From Balamuthia mandrillaris (Eukaryota): a DNA stretch of 53,954 nt. The translations under genes were made by a program, and so were the position numbers. Shown here piece after piece: positions 3,243 to 53,935 of the stretch. A model generated the notes under the pieces. The model worked only from the letters and a program-made list of their open reading frames with translations. It was not told where the DNA came from and made no database searches. The stretch covers positions 124,001 through 177,954 of the forward strand of contig JAVKOQ020000097.1 of the NCBI GenBank assembly GCA_031835245.2. The letters are read 5' to 3'. The first letter of the stretch is position 1; each line of letters starts with the position of its first letter.

Positions 3243-5563
3243 TTATGATGGATGGCCAAGAAGAGAACGAAGGCGTTGGTTCTCTTCTTGTAGGGCAGAT
3301 ATCAAGCGTTGGTTCTCTTTGTCTTTGGCTTCCAACGCTTTGATTCGTTGTCGCAGCTCCTCCATTGTTGTTTCGGGCTTCATAGTCTGGTTGTGTTTCT
3401 TCGTTCTTGGTTCGTCGTCTGTCGGTTGTTGGTGTGATGTTTTTGTGATGTTGTTGGTTTCATCTGCTTGTTCCTGGAAAGCAGCTGTATCTCTTCCACT
3501 TTCTTCCGTCACTTGGCTTAATATCTGTTGTTTTTGTTTGATGCAATGAGCAAAACCAAAACGGAAGAGAAGAGAGAAAAGAGAGAAATGAGAGACGGGC
3601 GAGAAGAGGGCAACATACCTGATGAGCATCGTCCAAACTTTTTTGCTTTTCAGCAAGCGGAGAGAGGGGGATAGCTTTGTTGCTAAATTGTTTGGAGATG
3701 GTGACCCGTTGGGCTCCTCCTTCCTCTTTGACTTGCAACGAAATGTTTCCATCCTTTAGTTCTTTCTCTCCTTCTTTTTCTCCTTCTTTTCGTCCTTCCT
3801 TGTCTGCTTCTTTCGTTTCTTTTATCGAGTCGTTTGAAGAATGCTGATGTTTGTGAAAAGAAACCATTTTCTTGAGCGTATTCTTCTTTTTCTTCTTTTC
3901 GTCTTTCTTCTCTTTCTTTTGTTTCTTTTCTTTCTTTCCTTCTTTCTTTTTCTCAGAAGAATGAAGCTCCTCTTTTCGCTTCTTTTCTTCTCCTTCTTTC
4001 CCTTCTGCTTCTCCTGCTTTCTTGGTTTCTTTCTCTTTTTCTTCTGCAGGTTGTGTTCGACGATGAATACCACTAGAAGCGAACGACATCTCTCCTCCAA
4101 TGTTAGAAGCTCTTCTTCTGTTGATCCGTTGTTGGCTTTGTTTTTGTGGTTCGATCTGCACAAAGTCGGAAGGAAAGTAACCTTTCATCCACTGTCCTTT
4201 CTTGTCCAACAGTTCTCCTTTCCACATCTTTATTTTGTTATATTCTTAAAAAGTGAGAAAGAAAGGAAAAGGAATGAAAGAAAGAAAAGTACATACCTTC
4301 AACTCTGTCTTGGCGTGATGCACATAAATCACATCTCCTTTCTTAAATGATAGCCTACCACTGTTCCTATCCCTATCGGCCGCTTCTCCTTCTCCTTCAT
4401 CGTCAAAATCGCGAAGAGCTGTTGCTTTCTGATACATACAAGCTTTCAAGTTGAGTATCTGGCTTTCAATCTTTGTCTTGTAGGCCAAATATCGTTGTGT
4501 CATTTCTCTCTTTCTCTGCAAATCCTCTTGAACTTGTCCTTGCATTAAGTTCTTCTCTTCTTTCGTTGCTATTGTTGCTTCGTTTTCGTTACTAACGTTC
4601 TGTTGTCGAAGACTATTTCGAATGTGTGAAAAGTTCATCTTTGTGCCATAGAGTCGTCCCAAAGTGACCATTGCTTTGCTCTCCTCTTTTAGCTTTTCCA
4701 GCCTAGAGTGAATCATCTCTAATTTCTCGTCCAATTCTCTAATGGCCCGTTTCACTTGTTTGTTGAGGTTTTCGGTTTCTTCTTTCTTTTCGTTTGTGGA
4801 AGTTTCTTTTTGTTGATCTTTTTCAACGTCTTTTGCTAATGAGTCGAGATAGTCCATGTTAATGCTTTCGAGACCATTGAAAGCCATTGTATCACTTTTG
4901 CTGTTGTCTGTTGTTTAAGGAGTGCAAGAAAACATTCTTAGTTGTGATGAGAATATGAGAAAGAGAAAGAAAGAGAAAGAGAACCAATTAAAAAGAGAAA
5001 AAGAAACAACACGTACTCATAGAAGAAGCAGGTGAGTATGAAGGCTCCAGTTTCTTGAGCTCTTCCACTGTTTTCTTGAGAGAATCCCCCACGTCTTCGT
5101 CAAGACTGATGACGAGACTTGATTTCTCGGAAGAATTCTGTTTGCCTTTTTGGAGCCATTCGTGCTGAAGAAGTTGTTTGGCTGAAGGTCGTTTGTTGAC
5201 ATCTTTTTCAAAGCACTGAGTCAAAAAGTCGTGCAAGTCCTGTTTGTGACGTTGTCTGTTAATAAAGGAGAGAAAAGCAGACGAAGAAGAATAAGAAGAG
5301 GAAAAAAGAGACCTCAGTCAGTTCATCAGGAAGAGGAGGACAATCATCTTGCACAATCTTAAAAATGGCTGTCATAGGCGGTAAAGAATAATACGGAGGC
5401 TCCTATTCAACAAAATGACATCAACTTTTTCCAAACCAAAAGACGAAAGAATAGTAAAGAAAGGAAATAGGTACTCCAGTCAACATCTCAAGAAGAGTAC
5501 AGCCAAGACTCCAAATATCGGCAGCAGGTGTCTGTCCACTCATCAAAATAACTTCTGGGGCCA
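3243..5563 (-). pseudogene. STE-group (SepA/Cdc7/MAP3K-epsilon-like) Ser/Thr kinase C-lobe + coiled coil + SH3; 5'-truncated at the MULE junction
   Basis: Exons 5563-5475 ([29 protein letters not shown]), 5402-5313 (EPPYYSLPPMTAIFKIVQDDCPPLP), 5239-5017 (DLHDFLTQCFEKDVNKRPSAKQLLQHEWL), 4907-4297 and 4227-3619 (SH3: ALRDFD...LSFKKGDVI...MWKGEL...GYFPSDFV), 3524-3243. Subdomains I-VII are absent: the upstream intron runs into the transposon TIR at 5669. Confidence 0.8.
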
Positions 5564-47713: not shown

Positions 47714-50390
47714 ATGGAGGGAGAAGACGATCCGGAGAGGGGTTGGTGCTGCCTCCCCTCCGATGCAGAAGAACTGGAAGGCCATGGCACGCCCACGAAA
47801 AAATCTGCCTCGAACCAACAACACTCCTCCAACAGCACGCCACTCCTGTGGCAGAGGGAAGCAAGCGGAGGAGGAGGAGAGGCGTTGCCACCGCCATTCT
47901 TGGAGGGCAAGCAAGGGCTCGACCTCTACATCGCCTATTGGTACTGCTGCTGCGGGGATGCACGCTCTCCGTTGCTGCGGGAGCAACAGAATGACTATCC
48001 TTCGTTTGTGCTGGGCCTTGGTTCTTCTTCCACCTCGTCTGCTCCGTCTACCTCCGATGGACCACTGCAGCAAGACCGTTTTGTAGCGCTCCTGCTGAAC
48101 GGTATTCGCAAAGCGGTTCGTCATTCTTCTCTTTGCTTTTCTCTCATCGTGAAACGATGCCAAAACGTAACAAACTGGAAAAAAAAAACGCAGACCACAA
48201 CAGTAGCTGCGTTTGCAGCACAACTGCATGACAGCGCGGAGCAAGAGCTAACCCCTGGCCATGGCTCCATCTCTAGGCACATTCCTCTGTACGGTTTTTT
48301 TGTTCTTGTCCTTCTTGTTCGTTCTCTTCTTCGTGTTCTTCGTCGTTCTTCTTCGTTCTTCTTCGTTCTTCTCTCCTTCTTGTTCTTCTCCTTCTCGTCC
48401 TTCTTCTTGTTCTTGTTCTTGTTCTTGTTCTTGTTCTTGTTCTTGTTCTTGTTCTTGTTCTTGTTCTTGTTCTTCTTCTTCTTCTTCTTCTTGTTCTTGT
48501 TCTTGTTCTTCTTCTTCTTCTTCTTCTTCTTCTTCTTCTTCTTCTTCTTCTTCTTCTTCTTCTTCTTCTTCTTCTCGTTATCAACCCTCTTGCCCTTCTC
48601 CGTTTGCCACTCCTTGTGGCCTTTAAGGTGACCTTCGCTCTTTCATTCTGCTAGAGCGGACATGAATGAAGACCGAAGCGGACTTGCATTGCTTGCGCTG
48701 ATGCAATGCGACTTTGTGGACTATGCCCCTCTTGTCTTTCATCGGTTGCGGTTACTCTATGGCTTTTCTGCTGATACTTTTCTGGTACATCGAACGCACC
48801 TTGTCTCTTTCTCTCTCTCTTTCTCTTTCTCTCTCTCATCTCCAAGTTATGTTCACAAACAACAAAAAGGATTCCTTCGCTACAGAAACGAACCAACTGG
48901 AAAGCATGAGCTCTCCTGGAAAAAGTGGTTGCAGCTTTTATTTTTCTGTTGACCGACGCTTTGTCCTAAAAACTATACACAAGGAGGAGTTTAAATTCTT
49001 CAAAACCAACATTTATTCCTATTATGAGGTTTGGCTCTTCTCTTGTTTTTCTTCTTCGTTGCTCACCGCAGTGATTCAATAGCACATGAAACAGAATCCA
49101 AACTCTTTGTTGGTGCGGATATTTGGTTTATACACTTTGAAACAAGGTACTATCAAGAACCTGTTACAGAGAGAGTCTCGGCACGTGGTCATCATGGAGA
49201 ACTTGGTGCCGGTTGACAGAAGCATAAGCGAATGTTATGACCTGAAAGGCAGCACTCACGGTCGCGTTACGCTGAAACCAACTGAAGAAAGGAAGGGGCA
49301 AGATAGACGAGGATCTAGTGTTGATAAACGTGAAGGAGAGGAAGTACATAGCAGCGGTGGGGGTGAGGGACGGTCGAAGTTAGTGGTTCTGAAAGACCTT
49401 GATTTTCATGATAGAAGAACCATTTTGTTGGTAGCATCCAGAAGGCAACTCTTTCTTGAACAGTTGGAAGCCGATGCAACGGTCTGTTTTCTCTTTTTTT
49501 GTGCTTCTCCTTCGTCGCCTCTCGTCTATTTCCTTTTTGCTTCTCTTCTCATATGACGAAAACGTTTGTGCAGTGGCTTTATTCTAGAGGATGTATGGAC
49601 TACAGTTTGTTCCTTCTGGTTAGCAAAACGAAGCCACCATCTGATCGTCATACAACTTCATCGCACCATCAACAAACAAGGTGAGAGACTTGTTGTTTCC
49701 TTCTGTCTTCTATTATCATACATCCTAATTCTCTCTTAGTGGTGAACGTATGAACAAACGAAGGTGGCGAGAAGCCATCACTGTCCATAACAAGTCTCAC
49801 TTAACGAATCCGTTCCGGTCACAACATTCAGAAGAAGAGGGAGAAGAACCTGAAGAAGAACCCCAAAACGAAGGCGGTAAGCGTCGTCATCATCTCTTCA
49901 AACGCCGTCAACGGAGAAATCAGCACCAACAACAAAGCAACAGTAAACGTAGTCGTGATGATGGAGAAGACGACAATGAAGAGGAGGAGGAAGGGGAGGA
50001 AGATAGACTGTCTACCAAAATGTCTGTCTTTCGGCTTGACGAAGGAGGATTCGCTGCTAGTAATGAGCTCCTCTCGAGCATTCGAGAGGGAGAGATCTAT
50101 TACATGGGCATCATCGACATTCTTCAACCTTACAACTGGCGGAAGCAGCTGGAGAACGCGTATCGCAAGCTCTTTGTGGAGGAGGAGGCGATTTCCTGCG
50201 TCGACCCTTACAAATACTCGTAAGTTCTGCATTCTTTTCCACCTCATCTCGCTCTACTCTACTCTGCTCTACTCGCGTTTTCCTTTCTCTCCTCTCGTCT
50301 CATTCGTTTGTTTGGTTTGTCTCATGCAGGCAACGCTTCCAGCACTTTCTTCGGGTGCACACTGGGCCTTCTCTGCATCTTCCTCCTTGA
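47714..50390 (+). CDS. Phosphatidylinositol-phosphate kinase (PIP5K family)
   Basis: DYAPLVFHRLR, SPGKSGCSFYFSVDRRFVLKT, NSLLVRIFGLY, VIMENL, YDLKGSTHGR, LKDLDF, MDYSL, YYMGIIDILQPY, ISCVDPYKYS|QRF. 5' exon structure around the 48300-48580 satellite is uncertain. Confidence 0.9.
48400..48575. repeat. (TTCTTG)n / (TTC)n microsatellite
   Basis: Direct inspection. Confidence 0.9.
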
Positions 50391-50584: not shown

Positions 50585-51189
50585 ATGGAACGAGCAAAGG
50601 AGACTCAACAAGAGGTAGCGGAGGGTCCTGGCCCCTTCCCCCTGCCAGCCGGCAAGGAGACCCTCTTTGGCCGCCTGCGCGAGGCCTGCAGGCAGGACTG
50701 GGAGGACTACCTCCACCACCCCTTTGTGCAGCGGCTGGGCGAGGGCACGCTCGAGCCCGACAGCTTCACTCACTACCTCAAGCAGGACTTTCTCTTCCTG
50801 AAGCACTTTGCCAGGGCTTGGGCCTTGGCTGTCTACAAGAGCGATACCCTCGAGGAGATGCAGTTTGCTTCTGCTGGACTCAAGTTCATGATCGAAGGTT
50901 GTTGTTTTGAGGTCCTAACTTTTTGATGTCAAGTGGGTGTGGGTGAGTCTGATGAGGATTACGAAAACACACCACGCACAGAGCCAACGCTGCACATCAA
51001 CTATTGTGCCAAATGGGGCATCACCAAGTCGGCCATGGAGCAAGAGCCAGAGGCCACGCACAACCTCGCCTACACTCGCTACGTTTTGGAGAAAGGCCAC
51101 AGCGGTGACTTGTTGGACCTCTACGCCGCCTTGGCCCCGTGCGTGCTTGGATACACCGAAATAGGTCTCATCTTGAAGGTCTGCCTCTC

Positions 51190-51230
<41 letters not shown>

Positions 51231-51519
51231 CTATGCTTCTCATCTGATGTAATCGCTACTTTTTTTTCTTCTGCAGAAGAAATACGCGGAACGGCTGGAA
51301 GCGGATGGAGGAGCCGAACAAGCACACCCCTACAAGGACTGGATAGAGACCTACGCGGACGCCACCTTCGCCCTCTCCATGATCCAACACCTGGACCAGG
51401 TGGCCACGGCCAGAGGGGGCTTCACCCCCGAGCGGTGGAGGAGCCTGACGGCCACCTTCCGCCAGGCCACCCGCCTGGAGGTGGGCTTCTGGCAGATGGG
51501 GTTGACCAGGAGCTTCTGA
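50585..51519 (+). CDS. tenA: Thiaminase II / TenA aminopyrimidine aminohydrolase
   Basis: HPFVQRLGEGTL...FTHYLKQDFLFLKHFARAWA, AYTRYVL, AALAPCVLGY (catalytic Cys), PYKDWIETY, ATRLEVGFWQMG. Introns about 50898-50981 and 51179-51276. Confidence 0.93.
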
Positions 51520-51831
51520 GTATATTAGGTTGATGCATGAGTGTCTTAACAACCTAATATTTTTAAGAAATATTTCCAGGAAATAATTGTCGACAAAATT
51601 GGTATATTGGGCTGAAATCACAATGAAAATTCGTGGAGAGAATTAGGAAAGAGAAAAGTTGGACGAAAGAAAGTTGCCGCGGGGGCTTTCATTACTACGT
51701 TTAAGTTTCTTCACCACTTGAAATTAAGAATCTGGGTCGTCATGAGATTTTAGAAACTTGCAAATAACCGAAATTTCAGGACGACACGACCTAGCTGAGT
51801 TCGAGCGAGAAAACAGAAAAGAAGAGGCGGG

Positions 51832-52257
51832 ATGGAAGGAGAGAAAGAACCGTTGATGGAGCTTCGTTTTTATCGCTCAGAGCTCCCTATTATTCAAAGA
51901 GACTTGGTTGTATTGGAACGTGGCGTGCTTGTACAAATTGTGGGGGACATCATTTGCCCGCAACTGCAGAGACGAATCAAGCGAAAAGCGCAAAAGTTGC
52001 CCCTGTGTGTCTCTGTTCCCCTTCATATACACCTTCACTTGGCTGTGTTTGGGGCTGCTGAGCGTGAATTTTCCTCCCTCGAAGAAATAGGAAATCTGTT
52101 TGGTCCACCGCCAGTTAAGACTTTCCGGTTGGGTTCTTATGCCATCCTGCAACCCCCCCTTACCATTGCCCGCACAAGCAACGGCGAAACCCGAGTCAAG
52201 GTCAATTATTGCGTTTACAACAAACAAAACGTTTTACTATGGCCAGAAGAAGGTTAG
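51832..52257 (+). CDS. Unknown 141-aa ORF carried by the RAG1/Transib-like element
   Basis: ATG-initiated, normal-complexity ORF inside the TIRs, convergent with the transposase; no recognisable domain. Confidence 0.55.
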   Translation: MEGEKEPLMELRFYRSELPIIQRDLVVLERGVLVQIVGDIICPQLQRRIKRKAQKLPLCVSVPLHIHLHLAVFGAAEREFSSLEEIGNLFGPPPVKTFRLGSYAILQPPLTIARTSNGETRVKVNYCVYNKQNVLLWPEEG

Positions 52258-53724
52258 CTACAGCGTTGTTCTTCGTTTTCTTCCTCCTCTTCACCGCCGT
52301 TTTCCGGTTGTGACTTACTTATTCCTTCCAGAGGCAGATACTGATGAATCTCAGGATGAGCTTTGAGACCTTTTGATGCCCAGGTCACAGGTTCTTTCCT
52401 CTTTGTTCGCCGTCGTTTTTGTTGCGGTTCAGGCAGCGTTCCTTCTGCGCGATACAGTTCTTGGCGGTAGGAATACGCCAGTTGTTGATAGCAAAAGTTT
52501 TTTTTTGTCACTTCCTTGAATGCTGTGGCCATTAGTTGGTATGTGCTTGTTCTGAAAGTGACGACTTTCTGTTGCATAATTGGCAAATCGTTCCACTGAC
52601 CCATACTTCTCTAGGAAGAATCCAAGGTGATAAATGAAGACATGGATATAAGGGGTAACTTCCTCATCGCCAAACGCCTGTGTGAACTTTGTTCCAAATT
52701 CCCTAGCTAATTCTAACCACTCGTTCTCTGTAATAGTCACCTTAGGTTGGGAAGCAAGGCTAGCAAGCAAAGCAAAGCGATCCCACAGTTGTTTTATGTT
52801 TGCTGCCCGTTCTTGTGATTTTCTTCTCCTTGCTCGTTTTTCAACAGCTTTCAAGAATAGAGCTTGGTTCTCAAGAATACGAATGTAGTCTGGGCGGCCA
52901 AATCGTGCTTTTGCTACACGTTGCTCCAAGGTCTTCATTTTATCATTCCTCTTCGGCAGTGTTATCTTTGCAGCCACAAAACACTTCTCCACTTCCTTGC
53001 CCAGTTTTTTCTTGCCATGCGTGTACTCTGCTAGTTGCTCAACCAGCTTTCGCATGACGCCCATGAAGCAATGCAACTGGCATGGGATCACATGATTGAA
53101 CAGAATCCTTAGAAGAGGTTTGTCTTGAATCCCAAAGTTTGTTGCAGCAAAGCGCTTTTTTGCACTGTTTGACTTTAACTTTGCAGCTTCCTCTCCCTTT
53201 GTCCACATTTGGGTTTTATCTCGGAATGGCCACATCTCTCTTGTGAAATCAGCAATATTATCCATGTCGACAAGGCACCACGGGCATTTCCATTGCGACT
53301 TTGGGTGATAGCAGGTATACAGCCCAAGGACTTTGATGAGTGCGGCCATATCACACACAAGCACCGGTTCAAGAGCATAGTCAATGCCATGAGCTTTAAT
53401 TGTCCCTCCGTTGATCAGGTATTCTATGCCTTTCACAGCATTTTTCAATTCTTTTTCCAACTCCTCTCTACTTTCCTCTCCTATGTAGACAATGTACTGA
53501 CGAGCGTTGTAAACTGATTTTGCCTTTGCCAACTCCAAGGAGGGTGGAGCTTTTCCGGGGGTCTTTCCGTCCCACCGTTCACAGGCAGCACAACTCTGAC
53601 CACAGTTATGATAGTGGCGGGTCCTTTCATGCCTCCAACTGGCATATTGACTCGCATATTGGACACGTTGACCTGTTTTTCCGGTGTGTGTACAGTTTTC
53701 ATGTGTACAGCACCAGCCTTCCAT
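52254..53724 (-). pseudogene. RAG1-core/Transib-type DDE transposase, apparently internally deleted and frameshifted
   Basis: VCDMAAL (second D), CPWC, PCQLHC, TPYIHVFIYHL, YGSVERFANYATESRH (E), in the order of RAG1 D708, C727/C730, H795, H937/H942, E962. Frameshift in the T9 run 52498-52506 continues into ORF 52254-52604. Confidence 0.75.
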
Positions 53725-53935
53725 CCGTGCCAGTCTTTCTCTTAGCTATTTTTTTTTTGTTAAACGAGTAAACGAGTTCCAAGAAAAAAATTTCGAAATT
53801 TCGTAAAAAATTAGCAGGTTCCTAAATTGCGTATGGATCCAAGGGTACTGCTAAACTTGCCATATAACTTTGATTGGCAAAAATTCCAAGGTGACGTCAC
53901 TTAGAAACCTGCTAATTTCAAGTGAAGAGGAAGCC

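Follow-up and report, generated by a model that had tools for sequence, protein, structure and literature searches.

The window analysed here, a 53,954-nucleotide stretch of a Balamuthia mandrillaris contig, quite probably contains an internally deleted and frameshifted copy of a CAC-ended cut-and-paste transposon, whose family encodes a transposase of predicted RAG1/Transib fold and a conserved, convergent partner protein of 151 amino acids, and which has likely been moved in trans and likely inserted without a target-site duplication (TSD). A sequence-only reading of this DNA had called it a RAG1/Transib-type element of a protist. That it is a protist DNA transposon was upheld by its exact ends, by several different flanks and by an empty site in another sample. 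The RAG1/Transib assignment stands as far as the predicted fold is concerned, whose best matches are RAG1, RAG1L and Transib, but the motifs that had been cited are not diagnostic of RAG or Transib because they are common to the whole CMCT clade, and we found no RAG2, no RAG-type heptamer beyond CAC and no TSD. Within the RAG1/Transib/CMCT group the element is a variant with two genes, as opposed to a RAG transposon that bears RAG2, and its most novel part is the convergent second gene.

Table 1. Features of the element, in coordinates of the window
Feature	Position	Strand	Remarks
Whole element, 2210 bp	51715..53924		Internally deleted non-autonomous copy; flanked by ..TTCAC (left) and AAGAG.. 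(right)
Terminal inverted repeat CACTTGAAATTA, second-gene side	51715..51726	+	X1 and X2 show other flanks abutting 51715 exactly
Second gene, exon 1, 140 codons	51832..52252	+	Product is annotated Balamuthia protein P0163, 151 aa
Second-gene intron, GT..AG, 79 nt	52253..52331	+	Splicing seen in X20 reads and in one X7 contig
Second gene, exon 2 and stop	52332..52366	+	
Family C-terminal transposase tail, other frame	52254..52497	-	QQL..R.E motif, basic stretch, acidic tail; overlaps 3′ end of second gene
Transposase ORF, 431 aa	52429..53724	-	Cys/His-rich N-terminus fused to second half of the predicted RAG1-fold core
T9 homopolymer run with one-base frameshift	52498..52506	-	Removes the conserved family C-terminus
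Four GT..AG joints inside the transposase gene	52537-52614, 52653-52736, 53115-53185, 53416-53538	+	X20 reads, X7 contigs
Internal-deletion junction	53538..53539		Missing part equals residues 72-340 of full-length relative P0012, including FDG Asp317
Subterminal inverted repeat, 25 bp, 84%	53808-53832 and 53894-53918 (arms)		Overlaps right terminal inverted repeat
Terminal inverted repeat CACTTGAAATTA, transposase side	53913..53924	-	Different flank past 53924 in X2; contigs stop at 53924 in X1 and X4

The perfect 12-bp inverted repeat beginning with CAC that had been proposed to bound the element was found as an exact pair, CACTTGAAATTA occurring exactly twice, at the two positions and on the two strands given in Table 1. 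When up to one mismatch is allowed, 0.24 chance matches are expected and 2 of 100 shuffles reach two, and a perfect 12-bp inverted pair arose in flanks of such size in 1.2% of 5000 Markov simulations, so that the repeat by itself gives weak support for the element ends. Copies elsewhere are known through sequencing runs (X1, X2, X3, X4, X7 and X20), and the ends are proven by contigs from these runs in which other flanks abut 51715 and 53924 and by empty-site joints that skip the element. Two contigs in run X1 have different left flanks abutting 51715 exactly, run X2 contains one different left flank and one different right flank at the element ends, and a contig from run X4 lacks the element, its empty-site joint running from 51712 to 53924. 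Other copies thus end at the same CAC repeats. Depth, a rough guide only, was 105-139 on the element against 48 on the flank of the window copy in X1, and about 430-457 against 35 on the flank in X4.

The family looks to have been active recently in Balamuthia, so that filled and empty sites can be compared in existing genomes. Since the deleted form in X1 has a depth of about 106 against 48 on the flank of the window copy (again a rough guide), this form has probably itself been amplified in trans. Shorter derivatives also occur in the runs, with joints that skip 455, 1282 and 383 bases. Two X1 joints, 51897-52353 and 52486-53769, would describe a short non-autonomous derivative of roughly 470 bp if one molecule holds both, and a further joint omits 53381-53765. 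If this were a host gene that had been domesticated and had inverted repeats by chance, it would be transcribed, as this locus is, and the 12-bp repeat alone could be accidental at the frequency simulated above; the polymorphic insertion, the several flanks at exact ends, the deletion derivatives and the lost catalytic Asp all speak against it. This explanation has next to no probability, and the empty sites rule it out.

All the motifs named by the sequence-only reading are present, in the order it gave, in the 431-aa minus-strand ORF, which retains D125, C147/C150, H218, H361/H366 and E386. Its reading of this ORF as a transposase has to be amended, however, because the ORF is not intact. 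About 269 residues are missing at 53538/53539, where the window protein goes from residue 62 directly to the equivalent of P0012 residue 341; the first catalytic Asp, which full-length relatives carry on a strand with the sequence F-D-G/N, is among them. The second lesion is the frameshift in the T9 run, at a place where the relative P0004 reads through. At 53538/53539 the X3 and X4 contigs and five X20 RNA reads continue into extra sequence, whereas an X1 contig spans the junction unchanged at a depth of 106. The T9 run is one letter shorter in X3, in X4 and in all seven X20 reads, and has its full length in the main X1 form. Both lesions are missing from another sample. Judged by its residues, the window copy cannot catalyse transposition because the first Asp is gone, yet its two ends are still there and its partner gene is intact.

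The nature of the complete enzyme was examined in full-length relatives. A search among representatives returned 442 proteins at E 0.001 or better; of 20 that were looked up, those named as transposases come from Balamuthia, Planoprotostelium, Heterostelium and Acytostelium, most of the 20 being unnamed, and named proteins of Balamuthia are the nearest transposases. Public annotation misnames the full-length Balamuthia transposases P0012, P0156 and P0158 ('unconventional myosin-VIIb-like', 'Caldesmon 1'). P0012, a 782-aa full-length relative modelled with a pLDDT of 88, has D403, C425/C428, H632/H637 and E657, that is, C(2)C and H(3-4)H, both placed after its second D and before its E, and the transposase N-terminus contains two Cys/His repeats. 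One family member, P0014, is fused to a Ulp1/Peptidase_C48 domain (E 9e-19), and another has a SAP domain.

The full-length transposase core is predicted to have the RAG1/Transib fold. The best Foldseek match of the P0012 model was RAG1 (E 8.5e-15), and in VIA the model aligned to RAG1 with Z 25.9 (449 residues, rmsd 4.2), to lancelet RAG1L (BbRAG1L) with Z 23.9 and to HzTransib (6pqx) with Z 23.7 (422 residues, rmsd 4.2), so that the comparison with RAG1 and HzTransib proposed by the sequence-only reading gave a match to both. Had another DDE superfamily matched best, its proposal would have failed; P (12.4), MULE (10.7) and Hermes of hAT (8.5) lie far below RAG1, and the zinc residues are present. 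The structural match spans RAG1 459-1008, from the DDBD to the C-terminal domain, at about 14% identity, and begins at residue 459-460, which we take to be just past the nonamer-binding domain. A 52-member family profile matched RAG1L (E 1e-4) and RAG1 (E 0.002). RAG1/RAG1L was matched by both the close-group and the distant-group profile and HzTransib by neither. A PDB sequence search with a single protein or a 9-member profile gave no match, and the window proteins had none in Pfam. Pfam scans of 52 members, single-sequence scans being insensitive at such distance, gave no RAG1 match and, among the 25 of 42 families listed, no CACTA/Plavaka or other transposase family; equally insensitive scans of 13 locus proteins gave no CACTA or Plavaka family and one weak RAG1 match (E 0.007). 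A pattern search of viral contigs gave 157 matches, none of them confirmed. Modelling thus confirms the predicted fold, which does not by itself show membership in RAG or Transib.

One alternative explanation of the structural matches is that the element belongs to one of the CMCT lineages catalogued before (Chapaev, EnSpm/CACTA, Mirage, Lanisha, ESTA or Plavaka) and appears RAG1-like only because RAG1 and Transib are the solved structures of the clade. RAG1 may win the structural ranking partly by default, since no other CMCT lineage was among the structural matches. Passages of PMC12730594 unite EnSpm/CACTA, Mirage, Chapaev, Transib, Plavaka, ESTA as well as Lanisha in the CMCT clade, ascribe C(2)C, H(3-4)H, CA..TG ends and TSDs of 2-5 bp to its lineages, and state that ESTA likewise matches RAG1 by HHpred. 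The present family has both C(2)C and H(3-4)H in the stretch from its second D to its E, its termini are 5′-CA..TG-3′, with ends CACTT/CACTG that are similar to CACTA, and two distant relatives weakly match DUF1280 (E 6e-4 and 6e-3). In contrast, the 52 members and 13 locus proteins matched no CACTA or Plavaka family among the Pfam families listed, one of the 13 weakly matching RAG1 instead, and the close-group and distant-group profiles both match RAG1/RAG1L. The C-terminal tail CX2CX3GHX4C, a RAG1L feature according to part of Martin et al. (PMC10462144), is present in the distant relatives L025-L029, and the TSDs reported for those lineages differ from the result for our element, with a TSD at 0 of 7 bracketed pairs (several of them weak) and none at one empty site. 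A catalogued CMCT lineage is in our opinion a distinctly improbable source of the element.

The sequence-only reading had expected a 5-bp TSD, and none was seen in seven bracketed copies or at the empty site. The flanks of the window copy contain no direct repeat. In X4 the empty site reads ..TTC CCG AAG.. and the filled site ..TTC AC (element) AAG.., so there is no duplication; the two differ by a one-letter loss or a shared terminal G and by one substitution. This empty site, the sole close one, is from another sample, and 1-2 of its letters next to the junction differ. Another empty allele, in X1, has 25 other letters and 10 gaps over the 233 bases of 51465-51697 (more than 10% diverged); at the point of insertion it carries roughly a dozen additional letters, which lie in a short inverted repeat, and its flank is a strongly diverged haplotype or a paralogue. 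The other flanks in X2 allow a TSD of at most 1 bp if both belong together. None of the 7 bracketed elements has an exact repeat of 1-8 bp or a repeat of 4-8 bp with one mismatch. Three of the seven have weak terminal-repeat calls (L006, L012 and L016, only 4-7 perfect bases), the pairs in L003 and L005 have a 3-nt flank at a contig end, and metagenomic contigs may be chimeric across repeats; L040 is the strongest pair besides the window, with a perfect 20-bp terminal inverted repeat and long flanks. The 49-bp inverted ends of L007, which we assume to be adapter-like, were set aside. Taken together, insertion without a TSD is likely. Part of a preprint by Ilin and Mannervik (bioRxiv 10.64898/2026.08.26.747230) gives TSDs of 2-5 bp within Transib and cautions that transposase homology outranks TSD length. 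For a DDE transposon that leaves no TSD there is an analogue in Spy (PHIS), going by the title of a work cited in PMC12730594; Spy belongs to a different transposase group.

It could also be argued that this is an ordinary Transib or RAGL transposon whose 5-bp TSD was lost or is masked by chimeric assembly, the second gene being a RAG2L remnant. RAGL/ProtoRAG elements (BbeRAG1L-RAG2L, Aureococcus AanRAGL) and RAG1 resemble P0012 in predicted core fold, D-D-E, CxxC and HxxxxH, and resemble the family in a long ZnB insert, CAC ends and a linked, tail-to-tail second gene. Transib (HzTransib; subgroups I and II of Tao et al. 2022) resembles it in fold (Z 23.7 to 6pqx) and CAC ends. The best folds are RAG1, RAG1L and Transib, the convergent layout is ProtoRAG-like, the spacing from the second Asp to the Glu (254-264 in the family) is like the 254 of RAG1 (D708, E962), and the preprint has TSDs of Transib elements varying from 2 to 5 bp. 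However, the second gene of RAGL/ProtoRAG encodes a six-bladed kelch-PHD RAG2L and here a 151-aa alpha/beta protein of three helices and mixed strands; the 5-bp TSD found there was not found here and would require that at least three letters had been lost to the left and to the right of the window copy. The nonamer-binding-domain motif GRP[RK] occurs in 0 of 12 long family transposases and the CCGHC tail of RAG1L in 0 of 175 proteins searched, being confined to the distant L025-L029, and the element ends CACTTGA, CACTTCG and CACTGCG have nothing but CAC in common with the CACAATG-like heptamer. From Transib the family differs in its two genes, in profiles that match RAG1/RAG1L and not HzTransib, and in having no detected TSD as opposed to one of 2-5 bp. 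We consider an ordinary Transib or RAGL element highly improbable.

The partner gene is conserved, spliced and evolves with a coding pattern. The second ORF of the window is the annotated Balamuthia mandrillaris protein QOT17_022744, and its gene (51832-52366, +) faces the transposase and overlaps its tail. Our survey covered 53 metagenomic loci, 17 of a close group and 36 of a distant group. A partner homologue is present in 12 of the 17 close loci, representing 7 distinct elements, and is always convergent and adjoining the transposase stop; every partner match in the loci lies beside a transposase. The five close loci in which none was found are L002 and L009, where fewer than 300 bases downstream are too short for a partner, and L006, L007 and L018, which have room. 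No amoebal-type partner homologue was found in any of the 36 distant loci. Acanthamoeba castellanii has one, ACA1_023090. Partner proteins of different elements are 20-30% identical, and in three of three gene pairs the third codon position differs most, then the first, and the second least. At L006 a PD-(D/E)XK_2 gene (PF12784, E 5e-14; 4477-5412, minus strand) lies beside the transposase that apparently has no partner.

The partner is predicted to be a 151-aa alpha/beta domain, the model being confident over residues 20-140 (mean pLDDT 80.6) with helices at 30-48, 66-73 and 83-90 interleaved with strands. Because of this length and mixed alpha/beta model it is not the kelch propeller of RAG2. 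No match to the protein was found in Pfam, PDB sequences, Foldseek PDB or viral proteins, and its best Z among 48,161 chains in VIA was 4.2, with none at 5 or above and several weak rows being winged-helix, an outcome that for this model shows neither a new nor a known fold. All its Atlas look-alikes scored under 0.8. A prediction of the complex of transposase and partner, run without alignments, scored 0.00, which speaks neither for nor against a complex.

Transcripts also cross the transposase gene. The first two of the antisense joints in Table 1 are covered by 11 and 9 X20 reads, and X7 contigs show all four; their strand is read from GT..AG alone, as the reads do not otherwise fix it. The joints are likely spliced read-through of the second gene, antisense to the transposase. 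In principle, the transposon could be real and its second gene have no part in transposition as a factor, being only a passenger or regulating by antisense. Such a role would suit the spliced plus-strand transcripts and the overlap of the two 3′ ends, the closing of L006 apparently right after its transposase with no such gene, and a partner in amoebae that has no detectable homology to the partners of the distant group. It fits poorly with the same place and orientation being kept across elements despite partner identities of 20-30%, with coding-type substitutions, and with the finding that all partner matches in the loci are beside a transposase. We therefore regard a passenger or regulator as somewhat unlikely, and lean towards the partner being an accessory nucleic-acid-binding or targeting factor that occupies the place of RAG2 in the layout without being RAG2. 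Kolobok elements have a transposase with a convergent accessory gene, KolX, as well as a TTAA TSD and RR ends. They offer an analogy only, belonging to a different transposase group, and TTAA TSD and RR ends are absent here.

A plausible course of transposition can be drawn from these observations by analogy with RAG and HzTransib. A full-length copy of about 3 kb would make the transposase, which could also move the deleted window copy in trans. The transposase would introduce nicks at the CAC ends, form hairpins on the flanks and carry out strand transfer, and we think it likely that the transfer would have little or no stagger. The partner may help in binding the ends or the target, a task in which RAG2 assists in a different way, and antisense read-through of the partner gene might damp the transposase. 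Insertion by a RAG-fold transposase with no TSD left behind would widen the range of strand-transfer geometries known in the clade (2-5 bp).

The transposase has relatives in the distant loci, the group of L025 being linked to the amoebal family by hhalign (E 8e-55). A quick tree of 38 rows, containing no RAG1 or Transib reference protein and no outgroup, put amoebal and distant members on opposite sides with an SH-aLRT of 100. Two types of distant locus also have a convergent gene, and we label them, by assumption, 'fungal-type' and 'animal-type'. In the first, six loci have a C2H2-finger gene in this position, and in the second, five near-identical loci have a gene with a weak chromo match (E 0.14); other distant loci show no convergent gene. 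The amoebal partner is not detectably related to these, its hhalign probability against distant partners being under 1% and its score in the shuffle test being equalled in 16 and 20 of the 60 shuffles. Compared with each other, the two types of distant partner beat 60 of 60 shuffles but reached only 0.6% in hhalign. Atlas look-alikes of the partner domain at L025 (4272-4955, minus strand) are small giant-virus (Nucleocytoviricota) proteins at 0.75-0.78, leads only.

In Tao et al. 2022 (PMC9435367), 'bacterial Transibs' serve as the root of the RAG1L/Transib tree, and one of them, CthTransib_0091 (supplement entry 17), comes from a 4.6-kb contig with a coverage of 5.4. Compared by eye with L025, it shares GDG, GGD.KFL, C..WC, LHLFLR, TGPEK, TPYMH, QQGLEKLND and the CCGHC tail, and its DNA, also by eye, has an apparent convergent ORF that is missing from the gene prediction in the supplement. 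By this comparison, a distant member of the lineage appears to be the 'bacterial Transib' of Tao et al., which suggests that the lineage has already been glimpsed once under that name and that the 'bacterial Transib' lineage may be eukaryotic. Amoebal members differ from CthTransib_0091 in their separation in the tree (SH-aLRT 100), in their introns, in having no CCGHC tail and in a partner that is not detectably related. Our pattern search of prokaryote genomes, in which 1 of 18 hits was confirmed (a weak 44-aa match), is no test of 'bacterial Transib' because the pattern would miss TPYMHAFAMH. The earlier suggestion of an undescribed family is thus partly sustained: we found no description of the element in amoebae in the literature, although Repbase and bioRxiv supplements may contain the family, and the portion of the Tao et al. 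supplement available (PMC9435367) has none of our six taxon names, whereas the distant member had apparently been published already.

The usual account of the origin of RAG1-RAG2 is that a one-gene Transib captured RAG2. Tentatively, and as a possibility rather than an expectation, the amoebal and distant elements, including the 'bacterial ancestor' of RAG, may form a widespread eukaryotic sister group of RAG1/Transib, made up of two-gene transposons with a RAG1-fold transposase, a small convergent partner and no TSD. The partner would contain a C2H2 or chromo-like module in the distant branches, and the hosts would be amoebae and other eukaryotes. If this is true, the tail-to-tail two-gene layout is older than RAG2, which replaced an earlier partner, and the bacterial root of RAG is likely a eukaryotic element in a bacterially labelled assembly. 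A deep RAG1-fold, CAC-ended lineage with a different convergent partner offers a comparison for the role of the partner and the timing of the two-gene layout, and because its distant members look like the published 'bacterial Transib', the claim of a bacterial root can be checked directly.

Some other features of the window were noted ahead of the element. A three-exon TENA/THI-4 (thiaminase II, TenA) gene at 50588-51519 on the plus strand stops 195 bp short of it, 49083-50223 on the same strand holds part of a PIP5K gene that is spliced, and a long TTC/TTG low-complexity tract at 48340-48575 gives spurious ORFs in several frames.
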